Source: Amoeboaphelidium occidentale (Eukaryota). Taken from it: a stretch of 56,412 bases of DNA. The notes below the pieces were generated by a model. The model saw nothing but the letters and a program-made list of their open reading frames with translations. It did no database searches and was not told the DNA's origin. Shown here piece by piece: positions 9,913 to 56,289 of the stretch; within the stretch, counting starts at the first letter, position 1, and the number at the start of each line of letters is the position of its first letter. The position numbers and the translations under genes are program-made. The stretch covers positions 310,001 to 366,412 of the forward strand of contig JALGPX010000014.1 of assembly GCA_023515795.1 (NCBI GenBank), read 5' to 3'.

Positions 9913-10863
9913 TTAGTATGCCATCCCTTGTTGATGACTTTTGCGTCTTGGCGGAGGAGGTCTACGTGGAGGCGGTGGACGTGCTGTTGTTGTGCGTGGA
10001 CGAGGAGTAGTTGAGGTTGAAACTGTTGAAGTTGTAAGAGTTAAAGTTGACGTCGTGCTAGAGATTGGAACTGTAACACTGGAAGTTGGAGTAGGGCGCA
10101 TAGGTGTACTGCTAGTAGGAGGTGGAGGAGGTGGAGGTACCCTTGTGGATGACTGCGGAGTTGGACGCGTTGAAGTTCTTGTAATTACCGTTGTGCGCGT
10201 AATTGAAGTAGTCCTCGTGGTTGGGCGGGTACTTGTGGTTGGCGTTGTGCGCGTAATTGAAGTAGTCCTTGTGGTTGGCGTTGTTGTCGTTGTTGTTGGC
10301 GGCGGTGCCATTGGAGTTGTACTAGTAGATGGTTTTGGAAAAGGAACGCTGGTTGAAACAGTTTCTGATGGAGGTGAAGGTGGAGGTGCAATTGGAGTTG
10401 TACTAGTAGATGGTTCTGGAAAAGGAACGCTGGTTGAAACAGTTTCTGATGGAGGTGGAGGTGGAACATATGAAGGAACGCTTGTTGTTGAAGTCTCGTA
10501 TCCAGGAGGAGGTACAACATATGAAGGAACGCAGGTTGAAACAGTTTCTGATGGAGGTGGAGGCGGAGGTGGAACATATGCAGGAGGAGGTTCGGGGTAC
10601 GTAGGAGTTTCAGATGGTGTCGGAACAACATAACTTGGAATTTCATGATAGTCTGTTGGTGGAACTTCGTAAACAAGTGAGGTTGAGGCATCAGGGTACA
10701 CAATTTCGTATGTTGAAGAAGCGGGGTACGCGATTTCGTATGTGGAAGCATCAGGATAAGCAACACTTGAAGTAGCAGCACTTGGACATGGCGCAGCATC
10801 ATTTGGTTCCGGAATTGCCAATTGCAATGAAATCAGAGTTGAAACAATGCACAAGAGCTTCAT
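9913..10863 (-). CDS. Secreted Pro/Thr/Ser-rich (extensin/mucin-like) protein, paralog A
   Basis: Signal peptide MKLLCIVSTLISLQLA, PCPS motif, repeated YPDASTYEI and PPPSETVSTSVP units, Thr-rich stalk; no hydrophobic C-terminus. Confidence 0.85.
   Translation of the reverse strand: MKLLCIVSTLISLQLAIPEPNDAAPCPSAATSSVAYPDASTYEIAYPASSTYEIVYPDASTSLVYEVPPTDYHEIPSYVVPTPSETPTYPEPPPAYVPPPPPPPSETVSTCVPSYVVPPPGYETSTTSVPSYVPPPPPSETVSTSVPFPEPSTSTTPIAPPPSPPSETVSTSVPFPKPSTSTTPMAPPPTTTTTTPTTRTTSITRTTPTTSTRPTTRTTSITRTTVITRTSTRPTPQSSTRVPPPPPPPTSSTPMRPTPTSSVTVPISSTTSTLTLTTSTVSTSTTPRPRTTTARPPPPRRPPPPRRKSHQQGMAY
10310..10456. repeat. Intragenic direct repeat (81-nt period, ~66 nt near-identical) encoding PPSETVSTSVPFP(E/K)PSTSTTP
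   Basis: 10310-10375 and 10391-10456 differ at about one position; further SETVST copy upstream in the gene. Confidence 0.9.
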
Positions 10864-11079
10864 GATACTTGTTTTCTAATATATTTTTGGGAAAACAAAT
10901 ATTACGGGATCTATTGGTCGTTATTGTAAGGCCAGTTGTGTCTGTGTCACCCAGCATTGGTTGGTCTTGTCTGTTGCACAAAGCCTATCAAGCGTCACAC
11001 AATAGATCACACAGACACGATTACGGCGCGCCAAGAAACAAAATACAGAGGAAGTGTAACCAAAGTTTTATTATCGTTT

Positions 11080-11457
11080 AGCTCCAGCTCATGCGTCTAC
11101 ATGCTGCGAGCTGGAGTGCGAATGAGCTTTCTTAAAGGGTGAATATCTAGCTCGCTCTGAATCCAGAAACTTAAGTTCATTCTGTTTACATGAGTTGAAA
11201 CAGACAAAGTTTTGGGCGGTTAAAGTCTAATTTAGATTGCTTAACTGTTTGGAACAGGGACATCAACGCTGCACGAAATATCAGACACGTTTTCTTGGAT
11301 TTGAATGCAAATGAAGGTTAAAGACAGGTGATTATGCTTGCATATTTACTTGTACAGTCTCCACCAGCGTAGCCGAGAAATCGGCGATTCGTGTAACGCT
11401 CTTCTAAGTAAGATTTTGTTCTATTTGAACTAATCCTGTAGTGAAAGGCAAGTTATT
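11080..11457 (+). mobile_element. Non-autonomous Fanzor (TnpB-like) remnant, copy 1: degenerate ZF + RuvC-III coding fragment plus conserved 3' tail
   Basis: Translates SFCLHELKQTKFWAVKV / 2-nt frameshift / NLDCLTVWNRDINAARNIRHVFLDLNANEG* (W codon at 11250, stop 11319-11321); ~93% identical to the reverse complement of 55225-55605. Confidence 0.85.
11322..11457 (+). ncRNA. Putative Fanzor omegaRNA scaffold, copy 1
   Basis: Non-coding region after the Fanzor stop, conserved between copies; nested stems TTACTT/AAGTAA, AGCGT/ACGCT, GCCGA-GAAA-TCGGC and terminal AACT..CCT..AGG..AGTT. Expression not shown. Confidence 0.5.
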
Positions 11458-11511
11458 CTTGTCAAAACGGTTTCATTTGAGTATTGATAGTAATTACAAT
11501 GTTAACTTGAC

Positions 11512-12417
11512 CTAACGCATTCCACCTACGCTAGGAGCCCTGCCATTTGGTCCATAACGGTTTACGCGGTTTACAGGAGGTGGTGGTGGAGCATCAATAC
11601 GCCTTGGAGGTGGCGCGACAGGTACACGAGGAGGTGGCGGAGTTGGTACACTAGGAGTTGTTGTGGGAACTGCAGGTGTTGTTCTCGGAACTCCTGGCGT
11701 TGGTGTGATAGACGTGGTCGTGGTGCTTGTTGTTCGAGGAGTGAATACTGGTGATGATGATGTAACAATTAAAGTTGTCGAAGGAGTTGGCATTGTTCTT
11801 GTCCTTACTGTTGCCGTCGTGGAAGGAGTGAAAGACGTTCTTGGTGTGGTTGCAGTCGTTGTCGTCATGATGAATGAAGTTGTTGTTCTTGTTCTTGTCC
11901 TAGTTCTCGTTCTGGGCCTTGTTCTAGTTCGTGTTGTTGTCGTCAATTGAGTAGACGGCGTTGGCTCAACCAATGTAGAGGTTAATATTGTTGATGGGTA
12001 AGTTGACGGAGTTGGTTCTACCAAAGTGCTTGTTCATGTTGTTGAGAAGGGCGGCTCGGTCGTAGGAGGATACATAACCGACGTGGAAGCTGTACAAGTA
12101 GTTGGTGGTGCGGGATATTCAACTGTAACTGTTGTTTCAACGGAGCTCGGAGGCGCCGGAGGAACAACGTATGAAACAGGAGGCAAACTTGATTCTGGCG
12201 CATCAGGAACAGGAACGCTTGGTGGAACGCTAGGATAGCTTGGCGACTCAGTACCTGGCGCATCAGGAACAGGAGCCTCGGGTGGAGGGCTTGAGTAGCT
12301 TGGTGGAGCAGCATCTGGTGTTGTTGAGCCTGAACTAGGGCATGGTGGTCCACCAGGAACTTCTGGAAGAGCAAAGTAAACCGACAAGAATGATGATACA
12401 AGTAGAACCAATTTCAT
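11512..12417 (-). pseudogene. Secreted Pro/Thr-rich protein, paralog B, interrupted by an in-frame TGA (12034-12036)
   Basis: ORFs 12034-12417 and 11512-12024 share one frame: ...FSTT*TSTLVEPTPST...; signal peptide MKLVLLVSSFLSVYFA and PCPS motif as in paralog A. Could be a truncated gene, readthrough or a sequence error. Confidence 0.7.
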
Positions 12418-16501: not shown

Positions 16502-18631
16502 CTATTTTGCTACTTTTGTTACAAGTTTGACTAAATTAGCCAAAGGAGACTGTATGAAGACGTAAAGGCAGGAACCCAAGAGACAAGACCATAAGAATAT
16601 TCCACCAAGACTCAAGAACAAAGAAGCAAGTCTGAAAGGATACTCACGAAGAACGGTTCCAAAGAAAACATGTAGCACGATTATATGAACAAGATACATC
16701 GAAAATGTGAGTCTTCCTAAAACAGCCCATCCTCTCCATGACGCAAATCGAGTAAGAATGTGTGTGGATTCCGGCGAGACAACAGAAGGTAGAGCCAATA
16801 GTCCTAAGCCTAAAGCCCAAAATATTCTAGATAATCCATTATAAGCAGCATTCATGTAAATACCATGGTCCTTCTCTGTCTCTTTCAATTCTTCAGTTGC
16901 GTTTCGGATCACAAATGGCAAGTACAGAGTGACGAGCAACAATACTCCGCCAAGTATTTGAAGTAAAGGAGTAACAAGTCTACTAATTGTGACTCTTCTT
17001 TTTCTCAGACTGAAACTGTAGTATGCAAAAATCACTCCGATCGTAGATGAATTCAAGTGATTGTAAGGTTTTGTCAAGAACTCTTTTAGGAACAATGGCA
17101 TACCCTTTGCATCTCTATCAAATAATACTGTTGGAATACTGTACTTCATAGTAAGCAACGCACTTGTGCATGACGCTGCAATTATTGCAAGAATTAATGC
17201 GAGGAAACCAAAATATTTCCAGCATTTGCCAAACCACAAAGGAACAATGAAAAGAGGTAGTAGAAGATACAATTGAAAATTGATAGACATGAACCATGAC
17301 CACGGGACACATACATCCTTTGTTTCAGTAGGATAAAAGTTATTGATGTACAATAGATTTGTCCACCAGAATCGCGAGCAAGTAGATTCGACACTATCCA
17401 CTTGTTTGAACCAAACAGGACCATTGCCCATTAGTGGGAACAAAAAGAACCAAGTAAACAAAGTGATAGCATACAAAGGCGTAACTCTGAAAAGGAAAGA
17501 AAATACGTAGTCAATGTAATTGAACATTTTTCTCGTGACATTCTTGGAAAAAGTCAAGTAAGCAGCAAAAAAGGCAGTTGTAAACAAAAAAGTATCAAGC
17601 GACAAGGGAGAATTGCTGAGAATCATCATAGCCGAGTAATCAGTCATTTCCAAAACAGTTTTCAAATCTACAGGAGCAATGTCCATGATCAGAAGAAATG
17701 TAACACCTAGCATTGCCCAAAGTAAAGATATGACTTTGAAGACATTGAATAGATTGACTTCTTCATGAGCTTGTGGTGAGCCTCTAAAAAGAGATGGTAT
17801 TGTAGAGTAAAGCGAGAAGCAAGTAATCAGGCGGAATAGGAAAGATCTCTCCGGTGGTTCTTGGGTTTTGATTATCAAAGGTGTATCTTCTAGAGGTTCA
17901 GCCAATGTGTCTGAACTCGATGAGGACAAATATTCCTTCGGTGGTTTTCCTTCTTCTTGTGTAATATCACAAGTAGCCGGAGTGCTCTTGTCCTTTGCTC
18001 TCAGAGCGTAAACTAGAACATACTCTAGAATTGTAGCGCCAACGCTGAACAGGACAATTATGACCAAACAGCTGAGAAATGTAATCGCAGAAGCTGACCA
18101 TTCAACTTTACCAAAAGGATGTACATTTGTAACATTATAGGAAAAGTTTAACTGTTCATCTTGAACAAAGTTTGAAACAAGTAGAGTGAATGGTGCCTGC
18201 TTGTAGAAAGCTTCTACTTTGGAGGTCATCATAACTTGATCACTCCCATCACCTGGAATCGCACCTTTGATATACTCAATGATCTGATTCACAACATCTT
18301 TGACATCTTCAGTATCACATGTAGATGGTAAGCAAACACCCAAGCTCGATGGCAAAACATTCCCAGCCACAACAAGATCACCTTCAACCAGATTATAAGT
18401 GAAATTGAAACCATCTTCGCTATCATCAACAAGTGAAACACATTCTTCAAGATCACCCAGAGATGTGAATGATCCACGCAGAGCACCAACTGGTTTGCCC
18501 CATGAGTCCAAAGCTTTTACTAACAAAATCTTCTTTTCCAACAAGCCTGAGATAGAGCCAATACATTCCCAGGACAATGATAGAGAGCCAGTAAGCGATA
18601 AGAGTAATATCGCAAGTCTCACAGCCAACAT
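16502..18631 (-). CDS. NRF-6/OACYL-like membrane protein (NRF domain + acyltransferase-3), paralog 1
   Basis: Signal peptide, DSWGKP...LGD..EC...GVCLPSTC (NRF domain), multi-TM region with GPVW...C..FWWTNLLYINN...C.PWSW. Confidence 0.88.
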   Translation of the reverse strand: MLAVRLAILLLSLTGSLSLSWECIGSISGLLEKKILLVKALDSWGKPVGALRGSFTSLGDLEECVSLVDDSEDGFNFTYNLVEGDLVVAGNVLPSSLGVCLPSTCDTEDVKDVVNQIIEYIKGAIPGDGSDQVMMTSKVEAFYKQAPFTLLVSNFVQDEQLNFSYNVTNVHPFGKVEWSASAITFLSCLVIIVLFSVGATILEYVLVYALRAKDKSTPATCDITQEEGKPPKEYLSSSSSDTLAEPLEDTPLIIKTQEPPERSFLFRLITCFSLYSTIPSLFRGSPQAHEEVNLFNVFKVISLLWAMLGVTFLLIMDIAPVDLKTVLEMTDYSAMMILSNSPLSLDTFLFTTAFFAAYLTFSKNVTRKMFNYIDYVFSFLFRVTPLYAITLFTWFFLFPLMGNGPVWFKQVDSVESTCSRFWWTNLLYINNFYPTETKDVCVPWSWFMSINFQLYLLLPLFIVPLWFGKCWKYFGFLALILAIIAASCTSALLTMKYSIPTVLFDRDAKGMPLFLKEFLTKPYNHLNSSTIGVIFAYYSFSLRKRRVTISRLVTPLLQILGGVLLLVTLYLPFVIRNATEELKETEKDHGIYMNAAYNGLSRIFWALGLGLLALPSVVSPESTHILTRFASWRGWAVLGRLTFSMYLVHIIVLHVFFGTVLREYPFRLASLFLSLGGIFLWSCLLGSCLYVFIQSPLANLVKLVTKVAK

Positions 18632-18802
18632 GACCTGTGAGCTGAAACAAGTTTTTGCGAAAGAACAAACAACGCCAAACAATTCCCAGGACCTTAAGAC
18701 CTCTATGAGCCATTAAATTTTAACCTAATCACTGTTGGATGACTCATCCTCTGCAAATTAACATGCGCCAACTCACTCTGTCCTAAACTTTTTACTGAAA
18801 GA

Positions 18803-53099: not shown

Positions 53100-55229
53100 A
53101 TGAAATCATTCCGATTGGCCCTGTGGGCTGCGCTCTCTGCCTCCGTTGCATTTAGTATCTCTGATAACTGCACGGCTGATATCCAATCCCTCTTGGCGAA
53201 GCAGACGTTGCTTACTCAAGCGATCGACTCTTTTGGTAAGCCTGTTGGTGCTTTTCGTGGTTCCTTCTCTTCTCTTGGAGACTACGTTGAGTGCACAGAG
53301 TTAATTGATGCAGATCTCGAGAATCCTTTATCATTCCGATATGCTTTGGTTGAAGGTGCATTGATTCTGCAAGCTGGAAATGCTCCAATTCCTCCTTTGG
53401 CTTCATCGCTTGGTGTTTGTTTTCCTTCTCAGTGTGATAAGGATGATATCACGGAAGGAATGGGTCTGATTTTTGAGTTCTTGAAGAGTAAATTGGGTGG
53501 TGGCGGTGGTGGTCCTCCTGGTCTTGACGGTGTTTCACAGTTAGCTGGACAATCATCATCATTTTTCAGGACTGTAGCAAATACCGCGTACTCGGCGCTA
53601 TTTGACGAGAGTGCACCTGAGCAGCCTGGCCTTAATGTTGCGTATATTGTTAATAGTGTTAATTTTGCGTATGAAGCAGATTGGGATACTCCATCGATCG
53701 TTGTTTTGTCTGTATTGGGAGGATTAACGGCCATCTGTATTTTGGCTACTCTGGCTGATTATTTGATGAAACGCTTTACCGAGTCGGAACTGGATAAGGA
53801 AGCTCTTTCAATGCTTGGTCATTCTGGTAGTGATGCCACGCTGGGTGAAAGATCACCATTGCTAACTGATCTATCTGCTTCTCGCGCCACCGATTATTCC
53901 GTTCATCCAAGAAAGAAGAATATTTTCGTGAAAATATTGCATGCATTCTCATTGTACAAGAATATTCCAATTTTGTTATCTAACAAAACACCCGCACCTG
54001 AGTTGAATATCCTTAACCTTTTGAGGTTGGTCTCAATTTGGTGGGTTGTAATGGGACACACTTTCCTTACAACGGCTTTAGAGTATGCGCATGTCGACTT
54101 GTTGAATGTATTCAGTGTTACCAAAGATTCATCTGTAATGATATTTTTAAATGCATTCTTTTCTGTTGAGACATTCTTCTACTTGAGTGCTTTCTTGGTC
54201 TCCTATATTGCATTCAACACCGAGAATTTCCTCAAGAAGTTTAACTACTTGAAGTATGCATTGTTTCGTTATTTGAGATTGACTCCGTCTTATGCATTGA
54301 CTTTATTCTTTTGGACTTATGTTTTCAAGAATCTTGGTGAAGGTCCTGTTTGGTTCAGGAAAGTTCAGAATATTAAGGAATCCTGTAGTAATTATTGGTG
54401 GACAAACATGCTTTACATTAATAATATTTACATGGATAAGATTGAGTCGGTTTGCATGCCATGGTCTTGGTACTTGAGCGTTGATTATCAGTTGTGGTTA
54501 GCATTGCCATTGTTCTTGCTCCCATTGTTTTACCTTTCGCACAGAAAATGGATCGGATACTTGTGGTTGGGTGCTGGAACCATTGGTGGTCTAATTTCTG
54601 TAATCGTCTCCAATTACGTTGAAGAAATTCCTGCTACGTTTACAGGTCAAGGCGATGGCTCTATGCGTTGGATGACCTTGTTCTACTTTAGGCCTTACAG
54701 TCATTTGTCTGTTTCATTGCTTGCAGTCTTTGCTGCTGCTTGCGCCTCAAGTTTGAGAGCAAGAAATTACAAGATCAATTATGTTTTAATTGCATTGAGT
54801 CAAGCGTTGGGAGCTGTTTTAATGATAATCACCGTGTACTATCCTTATGATGAAGTCAAGAATCCTGGAACATGGACCAACTTGAGAAATGCAATGTTCA
54901 ATGGCTTCTCAAAGATCTTATGGTCTCTTGGGTTATCATTCTTCATCTTGCCATCAATTATTAACCCACAAAGAACAAGATTATTGACAACTTTTAGCGC
55001 TTGGTCTGGATGGAAAGTTGCTGCAAAATTAACTTACTCGGTTTACTTGGTACATTACATGCTCAACTACGTTTTCTTTGCTTCTAGATTGAGAGAGGAA
55101 GCTTACAAACCTGCCACTTTTGTGTTTAACTTTGGTGGCGTCTTATGGTGGTCATACTTGGCAGCTGTTCTGATGTTCCTGTTCATTGAAGCACCCTTCG
55201 GAAACTTGCTGAAACTCTTGAAGAAATAA
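53100..55229 (+). CDS. NRF-6/OACYL-like O-acyltransferase (acyltransferase-3), paralog 2
   Basis: Signal peptide, NRF domain, LRLVSIWWVVMGH (R-x10-H), FFSVETFF.LS, RYLRLTP, WYLSVDYQL. Confidence 0.9.
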   Translation: MKSFRLALWAALSASVAFSISDNCTADIQSLLAKQTLLTQAIDSFGKPVGAFRGSFSSLGDYVECTELIDADLENPLSFRYALVEGALILQAGNAPIPPLASSLGVCFPSQCDKDDITEGMGLIFEFLKSKLGGGGGGPPGLDGVSQLAGQSSSFFRTVANTAYSALFDESAPEQPGLNVAYIVNSVNFAYEADWDTPSIVVLSVLGGLTAICILATLADYLMKRFTESELDKEALSMLGHSGSDATLGERSPLLTDLSASRATDYSVHPRKKNIFVKILHAFSLYKNIPILLSNKTPAPELNILNLLRLVSIWWVVMGHTFLTTALEYAHVDLLNVFSVTKDSSVMIFLNAFFSVETFFYLSAFLVSYIAFNTENFLKKFNYLKYALFRYLRLTPSYALTLFFWTYVFKNLGEGPVWFRKVQNIKESCSNYWWTNMLYINNIYMDKIESVCMPWSWYLSVDYQLWLALPLFLLPLFYLSHRKWIGYLWLGAGTIGGLISVIVSNYVEEIPATFTGQGDGSMRWMTLFYFRPYSHLSVSLLAVFAAACASSLRARNYKINYVLIALSQALGAVLMIITVYYPYDEVKNPGTWTNLRNAMFNGFSKILWSLGLSFFILPSIINPQRTRLLTTFSAWSGWKVAAKLTYSVYLVHYMLNYVFFASRLREEAYKPATFVFNFGGVLWWSYLAAVLMFLFIEAPFGNLLKLLKK

Positions 55230-55605
55230 CTGGCCCTTCGCTACAGGATTAGTTCAAATAAAATCCAAATCTTACTTAGAAGAGCGTTACACGAATCGCC
55301 GATTTCTCAGCTACGCTGGCGGAGACTGTACAAGTAAATATGCTGCCATAATCACCTGTCATTAACCTTCATTTGCATTCAAATCCAAAAATACGTGTCT
55401 GATATTTCGTGCAGCGTTGATGTCCCTCTTCCAAACAGTTAAGCAATCTAAATTTCAGACTTTAACCGCCCAAAACTTTGTCTGTTTCAACTCATGTAAA
55501 CAGAATGAGCATAACTTGCAGGGTTCAGATCGAGCTAGATATTCACCCTTTAAGAAAGCGCATTCGCACTCCAGCTCGCAGCTTGTAGACGCTTGAGGTG
55601 GAGCT
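55225..55605 (-). mobile_element. Non-autonomous Fanzor (TnpB-like) remnant, copy 2
   Basis: One frame on the minus strand: CKLCSFCLHELKQTKFWAVKV*NLDCLTVWKRDINAARNIRHVFLDLNANEG* (TGA at a likely Cys, 55455-55457; RuvC-III motif 55401-55433; stop 55362-55364), then the conserved structured tail. Confidence 0.85.
55257..55262 (+). promoter_or_regulatory. AATAAA polyadenylation signal for acyltransferase paralog 2, lying inside the Fanzor remnant
   Basis: 28 nt after the TAA; AATAAA also follows stops at 16475, 19830, 27552, 36123, 37277, 38798, 40317 and 48065. Confidence 0.6.
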
Positions 55606-55638
55606 CTGCGCGATCAATTGATCGATTAATTTTGAGCA

Positions 55639-56289
55639 ATGAATTCAGCATCTGTGCTCTTTGATGCGAGACAAAACAAGCATATCCTGAAAACTTTAAC
55701 TCACTTAAGAATGCTTATAAATCAATTTCATTCAGAACGACAGAAAGCTATTAATGTATTGGTGCTCATACAGCGCGAGTTTTACCAGTTCAACGCGTTT
55801 TCGTTTGTGCAAGAGTACAAAGAATTTCCTCGTGCTCGCCTCGAGACTGTTTGCGCGACCGCTATAGAGAAGTTCAGACGAGAACTCTTAAATATCATGT
55901 AAGGCTGACTGATTTTGCCGAATAATTTGTATAGAGAATCAGGACTTGAAGAGATTTATAAGAACGTGGCCTCCGAATCCACTAAATTAGGCCAGAACTG
56001 GAAAATGTTACAAAGCAACGGAGTATCACTTGAGTCCATAGCATTTAGACGAGATTTGGCTGAAACTTTGGCGGCATCTCAATTGACGCAGATTGAACTT
56101 TGGAACTCTTTGAGTAAAGACGTTGATGCAGACAATATCCTGTCAGTTATAGATGAATGGGAAAAGCCCCGATTTATACGGCGCGATGTCGGTAAGACCT
56201 GAAGGGCGAAGGTAGCTGACTTTTTCTTAGAGAATTGTATTTTAGATTCCTACAGAATAGCTACCATGGTTTCAAAGCTCAAAGAATGA
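55639..56289 (+). CDS. Hypothetical protein (3 exons)
   Basis: ORFs 55639-55902 and 55915-56202 join through a gtaagg...tatag intron; a second gtaaga...cttag intron leads to TGA at 56287-56289. Confidence 0.65.

Follow-up and report, generated by a model that had tools for sequence, protein, structure and literature searches.

A duplicated 380-bp Fanzor1 remnant resembling a nuclease-less transposon derivative in the aphelid Amoeboaphelidium occidentale

The window analyzed here is the whole 56,412-nucleotide stretch of Amoeboaphelidium occidentale DNA (GenBank assembly GCA_023515795.1, contig JALGPX010000014.1, positions 310,001 to 366,412 of the forward strand). It carries a compact eukaryotic gene set that includes Trs120, a formin, an ATP synthase subunit, a phosphoglucomutase and an RFC subunit, among others, and a Pfam scan of 41 ORF pieces found no transposase in it. 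Two minus-strand ORFs rich in serine, threonine and proline lie in tandem (9913-10863 and 11512-12417); they have hydrophobic N termini, internal repeats and no Pfam match, and possibly encode secreted wall or adhesion proteins. Moreover, two paralogues of the NRF/acyltransferase-3 type are present, one on the minus strand (16502-18682) and one on the plus strand (53100-55229).

A unit of about 380 bp occurs twice in the window as an inverted pair, copy A on the plus strand and copy B on the minus strand (Table 1). By repeat search and blastn, the copies are 92.65% identical over 381 alignment columns (E = 3e-158) and differ at 28 of them, with 25 mismatches and 3 gap columns. A preliminary description of this DNA had counted about 28 differences by hand, or roughly 93% identity over about 380 bp, and the count was exact. 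It had also stated that the ORF track shows none of this, and indeed, no ORF of at least 100 aa lies over either block, save for the last 5 bp in copy B, which are shared with the end of the host acyltransferase-3/NRF ORF and include its stop codon (55227-55229). Those last five shared bases of the unit read TTATT, and they may be a target motif instead of element sequence. Within the window, neither self-blastn nor a six-frame search with a hidden Markov model (HMM) of 24 relatives found a third copy of the unit, and the HMM found no Fanzor pieces beyond copies A and B. Metagenome contigs, scanned for exact 30-base matches to the unit, likewise gave 0.

The edges of the unit are sharp in both copies and the flanks are unrelated, which rules out a segmental duplication that included the neighboring genes. 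Anchored extension scores were equaled by 202 of 300 random window pieces for the left flanks and by 22 of 300 for the right flanks, and the latter figure rules out right-flank similarity as a mark of guide-directed insertion. A host ORF begins, with ATG, 33 bp past the left end of copy B. Removal of copy B in silico leaves about 30 bp between the two host ORFs, as expected if copy B inserted into a compact spacer. Both copies are antisense to their two neighbors (10863-11512 and 55229-55639), each with its right end toward the 3' end of a host gene and its left end toward the start of the next. We note that a 14-bp perfect palindrome (55611-55624) sits immediately outside the left boundary of copy B. 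We further note an AATAAA at 55256-55263 in copy B, on the host-gene strand and about 27 nt past the acyltransferase stop, that is absent from copy A. Speculatively, copy B may be the source of the polyadenylation signal of the acyltransferase gene.

Table 1. Features of the two copies of the unit, in window coordinates
Feature	Position	Strand	Remarks
Copy A, Fanzor1-derived unit of about 380 bp	11080..11457	+	Flanked by two Ser/Thr/Pro-rich minus-strand host ORFs
Copy B of the unit	55225..55605	-	Inverted blastn match to copy A
5' module, copy A (candidate left end)	11080..11167	+	88 bp, not Fanzor coding; Fanzor homology begins at about 11168-11171
5' module, copy B	55518..55605	-	By alignment to copy A
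GC-rich hairpin at left boundary	11081..11117	+	9-bp perfect inverted repeat in copy A, interrupted in copy B
Fanzor1 C-terminal coding remnant, copy A	11168..11372	+	tblastn and HMM, against P0032
Fanzor1 C-terminal coding remnant, copy B	55311..55517	-	tblastn and HMM, against P0032
Predicted 12-bp hairpin	11324..11353	+	All three differences between copies fall in the 4-nt loop
Predicted 5-bp hairpin with GAAA loop	11372..11385	+	One difference in copy B, C-G to U-G
85-bp tail, copy A	11373..11457	+	Placed and sized like a Fanzor1 guide-RNA scaffold; compared with Spu-1

The middle 205 bp or so of the unit corresponds to the C-terminal end of Fanzor1, with its zinc finger and last RuvC motif. 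The copy B peptide, with X at its TGA, matched Pfam Cas12f1-like_TNB at an E value of 0.003 and three NCBIfam TnpB models at 4e-4 to 0.06, all under the curated cut-offs. Alone, the window peptide reached an E value of 1.3 against the PDB, and a word-index search with the 80-aa peptide gave nothing among 11 candidates. A phmmer search of 1.84 billion representatives returned 30 matches, and a Pfam scan of 16 of these found the TNB domain in 15, above the cut-off in 14. One match, P0022, was set aside as an unrelated repeat protein without the domain, and full-length proteins of the Fanzor type are among the phmmer matches. The top match is a 90% cluster that holds KAI3658458.1 (P0001, 66 aa), KAI3657174.1 (P0032, 325 aa) and a 54-aa IMG fragment. 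Both accessions are named Amoeboaphelidium occidentale, in line with the earlier proposal that this genome hosts or hosted a Fanzor family. Copy B is identical to the last 68 residues of P0032 at 62 positions, and copy A is identical at 44 of 47 and 18 of 19 positions on either side of a frameshift.

The protein P0032 has the RuvC D-E-D, with E253 just ahead of the zinc finger, and its catalytic residues D95, E253 and D289 do not vary across 24 aligned sequences. It fits the motif D-X(125-275)-[TS][TS]-XX-C4 zinc finger-X(5-50)-RD through D95, T256-S257, C260/263/278/282 and R288-D289. When a profile of the 24 relatives was searched in the PDB, SpuFz1 (8gkh), PpFz1 (9cf0) and GtFz1 (9cer) ranked at the top with E values of 3e-26, 8e-18 and 1e-14, and TnpB fell far below the Fz1 structures at 4e-3. 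The check that the preliminary description had proposed, a comparison of the peptide with Fanzor/TnpB profiles, was positive: the profile matched the window peptide with 99.3% probability (E = 1.4e-20), over residues 28-80 only. Moreover, four proteins 34-44% identical to P0032 (P0037, P0038, P0047 and P0051) match FZ1-labeled rows in the table of Saito 2023 (PMC10432273). Judged from sequence, by profile ranking and published FZ1 labels, P0032 appears to group with Fanzor1 and not with Fanzor2 or TnpB. The TNB and TnpB models, phmmer and the PDB profile ranking thus agree with the earlier reading of a zinc finger plus W-N-R-D as Fanzor1.

Neither copy has the makings of a functional nuclease, as each holds only the last catalytic Asp, both contain stops and copy A is frameshifted. 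Copy A has W-N-R-D at 11250-11261 and a premature TAA at 11319-11321, followed by the P0032 tail up to a TAG at 11370-11372. Private to copy A are a first zinc ligand changed from Cys to Ser and a 2-nt deletion that shifts the frame at 11228, in the codon of the third zinc ligand. Copy B reads W-K-R-D and has two stops past its N-E-G motif; private to it are a TGA at the third zinc Cys, the N-to-K change and a second stop. One zinc ligand is lost in copy B and two in copy A, and RD is kept in both. The peptide had been described with a stop or frameshift at one position, and its translations agree: copy B reads through with one TGA, and copy A is frameshifted at that codon. Relative to P0032, both copies carry S to L, G to E and K to stop, and because these changes are common to both they are older than the duplication. 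Fanzor homology also starts at the same codon in both copies. The shared start codon, the shared premature stop and the two shared substitutions thus indicate that the unit likely multiplied after the gene died.

The C-terminal tail of P0032 and the window copies (11322-11388) is unlike that of relatives: it is absent from 12 other relatives in the alignment, and P0001 and P0031 keep the usual ending. In a post hoc test, the usual 10-residue ending was located, frameshifted, about 36 nt farther on, at an edit distance of 6 in copy A (0 and 4 of 150 shuffles did as well) and 7 in copy B (18 and 26 of 150). The result suggests that a 36-nt hairpin-forming insertion, holding a 30-nt GT..AG stretch, displaced the usual ending. 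P0001 itself starts matching Fanzor at the lysine of the window copies (11304-11316), and its first four residues are an alternate reading frame of the window N-A-N-E codons. It may be that P0001 comes from a tandem copy of the 380-bp unit, or from a third one.

The 5' module precedes the Fanzor homology, and we infer that it is the left end of the element. Its hairpin begins 1 nt inside the edge, within the 0-2 bp from the end that characterizes Helitron2, and its folding z score is -3.0 in copy A and -1.3 in copy B. The module had no match among Rfam and tRNA models and none among 141 loci. A tRNA- or SINE-like head was ruled out, as there was no ARAGORN gene and no Rfam match near the gathering score. 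A diverged copy of the 3' module was ruled out as well, since 198 and 682 of 1,000 shuffles score equally. Diverged Fanzor coding sequence was suggested by a loose tblastn extension, but the profile starts at residue 28 and the HMM at nt 55517, and this origin was discarded too.

Local alignment of the unit ends found no terminal inverted repeats (TIRs) in either copy (993 and 979 of 1,000 shuffles score equally), and the exact inverted words within the unit are internal only. No word duplicated at both junctions, as a target-site duplication would be, is common to copies A and B. Thus, the TIRs and target-site duplication that define Tc1/mariner or other DDE-dependent MITEs are missing. Moreover, no Helitron2-type 3' asymmetric inverted repeat matching the 5' end was found (659 and 949 of 1,000 shuffles score equally).

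The preliminary description had suggested many more copies and possibly an intact master copy; two DNA copies were seen in the window, and no master copy was found. P0032, the closest protein, is a 325-aa model without the N-terminal half. In word-limited searches, the best identity to P0032 was 53% among proteins of 178-569 aa (9 matches) and 50% among those of 570-2000 aa (21 matches), and none of at least 570 aa exceeded the latter value. Other Fanzor families of A. occidentale do have full-length models (P0047, 749 aa; P0051, 804 aa). Five A. occidentale Fanzor models (P0033, P0037, P0038, P0040 and P0046) contain scrambled internal duplications, the result either of misassembly or of tandem rearrangement that is real. 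P0046 and P0032 are both assigned to a 32,803-base contig, with locus tags close together.

From a metagenome scan, 80 of 236 relatives were kept, with a top identity of 63%, and none of those 80 had a DNA-level match to the 5' or 3' module (best E = 0.09). Viral scans returned distant relatives only (51 and 10 loci). Imperfect inverted repeats of 32-34 nt bracket the Fanzor ORF in 2 of 10 relatives' loci (L069 and L076). At locus L063 (2018-5165), an IS630/Tc1-mariner-type transposase (DDE_3 + HTH_33) lies directly upstream of a full-length Fanzor1 of the same clade, with no clear TIRs, and at L078 a DDE_1 piece lies about 4 kb downstream of Fanzor. These were the only two transposase matches in the scan, which took in 88 of the 165 frames listed for 31 of the 80 loci, and the same scan found no HUH, serine- or tyrosine-recombinase near relatives. 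We note that another Fanzor1 relative (L102, 449-1768) has a giant-virus major capsid gene about 3 kb away.

We think it probable that the unit is a non-autonomous Fanzor1 transposon derivative with an internal deletion, and that it was copied as a whole once its gene was dead and is probably inert now. The reading starts from the Fanzor1 identity, the lesions, the boundaries common to both copies and the lack of relation between their flanks. A deletion would have joined the left end of the element, the 5' module, to the codon that precedes the zinc finger, after which the remnant would have acquired one stop and two substitutions. A transposase presumably encoded elsewhere would then have carried the unit to new intergenic sites, and the copies would have drifted about 7% apart. 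The tail may once have been transcribed as a guide-RNA scaffold, with a guide from flanking DNA, as in Spu-1. Further points in favor of this reading are the 85 nt from stop to boundary, close to the Spu-1 arrangement, the inverted repeats at L069 and L076 and the transposase at L063. Against all of this stand the lack of TIRs and of a common target-site duplication, the sighting of only two DNA copies and the unmatched 5' module.

Perhaps, no transposition was involved. A dead Fanzor fragment fused to unrelated DNA could have been pasted by break repair or ectopic recombination, in which case the 5' module would be no transposon end. The absence of TIRs and target-site duplications favors such pasting, as do the scrambled duplications in the five A. 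occidentale models, which point to rearrangement or assembly trouble near these genes. Random capture, however, would not favor a hairpin that starts 1 nt inside the left boundary, nor a right boundary where the right end of a Fanzor element is expected. We regard this account as rather unlikely.

Alternatively, the unit might still work as a guide RNA. The distance from stop to boundary is 85 nt, and in Spu-1 the region after the stop is 80 nt with a scaffold of 75 nt, according to Saito 2023 (PMC10432273). Both the 12-bp hairpin and the 5-bp GAAA-loop hairpin are predicted in copies A and B. When the 11 substitutions of copy B were placed on the predicted 3' fold of copy A, 0 pairs were broken (P = 0.007, uncorrected), a pattern that challenges present inertness. 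When neighboring changes were treated as single events, 0 of 9 broke a pair versus 2.5 expected (P = 0.034 with the minimum free energy [MFE] fold and 0.004 with pair probabilities), and the antisense strand gave no signal. The reciprocal test on the fold of copy B, however, did not reach significance (P = 0.23 and 0.11), and the two sequences went through 12 comparisons in all. Moreover, shuffled sequences fold as well as the 3' module does (z = -1.55 and -1.19), and 0 of 44 predicted pairs show a compensatory change. No clear counterpart was assigned in the unit to the 7-bp first stem described for Fz1 omegaRNAs in a Cell 2024 paper (PMC11423790).

If the tail does work, the protein would be dead and the 3' part would remain an omegaRNA for an intact Fanzor1 made elsewhere, with a flank-derived guide directed at the empty allele. 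The place and length of the tail and the unbroken pairs of the copy A fold are in keeping with such a role. Ghost omegaRNAs are functional in Spizellomyces punctatus, as given in Saito 2023 (PMC10432273), and other full-length FZ1 proteins exist in A. occidentale. The dead coding part, however, has diverged less (6 differences in 152 nt) than the 3' and 5' parts (21 in 226 nt, P = 0.065), and the word-limited search found no cognate full-length protein among those of 570-2000 aa. We are doubtful of a working guide and give preference to the inert, internally deleted derivative.

A more ambitious idea, and a long shot, is that the unit belongs to a family of TIR-less, hairpin-capped aphelid Fanzor1 mini-elements that depends for movement on a non-DDE enzyme (of rolling-circle or recombinase type), supplies flank-programmed guide RNAs in trans and inhabits a small genome with many Fanzor1 families. 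Finally, it is hardly credible that the peptide is a chance look-alike, that a piece of a host gene was duplicated or that the assembly is at fault. Sub-threshold Pfam, NCBIfam and PDB scores for the lone peptide speak for such an account, but chance identity is refuted at the level of sequence by the profile match and by about 90% identity to a protein with three RuvC catalytic residues, and an artifact is countered by copies that are 7% different and have different flanks.

Part of what lies at this locus is already known. KAI3657174.1 is a Fanzor HMM match in Table S2 of Yoon 2023 (PMC10711439), relatives are labeled FZ1 by Saito, and nuclease-less ghosts have been described, with 134 ghost loci in Saito 2023 (PMC10432273). 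Given that its nearest protein match has been published among the Fanzors, the unit is real but mostly ordinary. The Saito table mentions A. occidentale 26 times, with the FZ1 label in 16 of the 18 rows listed. An 11-residue family motif is absent from the Saito tree table and occurs once in the Yoon supplement, in KAI3657174.1 itself. Jiang 2023 (PMC10530073) gives 20 extra fRNA copies in Chlamydomonas, and the available parts of two of its supplements hold no mention of Amoeboaphelidium. No paper with both Fanzor and Amoeboaphelidium in its main text was found, and preprint supplements could hold further lists; a search of Amoeboaphelidium with "transposable element" found only unrelated reviews. 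Nor was a published description of the 380-bp unit found, the published table rows listed being of proteins only.

Why the unit is of interest depends on its state. A dead remnant is of little importance. The unit does, however, show where the right end and the guide-RNA region probably lie in an aphelid Fanzor1 family tabulated only as protein, and these would be needed for nuclease testing. Should the tail prove to be expressed and the unit to move without inverted repeats, there would be a bearing on a question from Saito et al., namely, of what use Fanzor is to its transposons and whether nuclease-less copies are a guide reservoir.

We conclude that the 380-bp unit is a real Fanzor1 remnant that resembles a ghost or MITE derivative, although it fails the inverted-repeat test of Spu-1. 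Closest to it are the A. occidentale Fanzor1 proteins in the published tables (PMC10711439 and PMC10432273), with which it shares an unusual tail and is about 90% identical across the final 68 residues; the window copies differ in being unannotated non-coding DNA remnants. SpuFz1, PpFz1 and GtFz1 head the family profile's ranking but are distant in sequence, and the window has only the zinc finger and last RuvC motif. The ghost Spu-1 elements of Spizellomyces punctatus (PMC10432273) are likewise multicopy and nuclease-less and keep the region past the Fanzor1 stop. They are about 550 nt long, however, with 30-nt inverted repeats, a CA motif and no ORF, whereas the unit measures 380 bp, still contains about 68 dead codons and shows no detectable inverted repeats. 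Bao and Jurka 2013, who defined the Fanzor motif, place Fanzor1 in TIR, Helitron2 and TIR-less elements (PMC3627910). The Helitron2-type Fanzor1 elements CRe-1/2/3 of Chlamydomonas reinhardtii (PMC3627910 and PMC10530073) differ from the unit, which has no 3' asymmetric inverted repeat matching its 5' end, no target-site duplication and left flanks that are not TTTT in both copies. Like the unit, however, CRe-1/2/3 lack symmetric TIRs and have a 5'-terminal hairpin, and their 3' ends are retained where the remainder is truncated or deleted.
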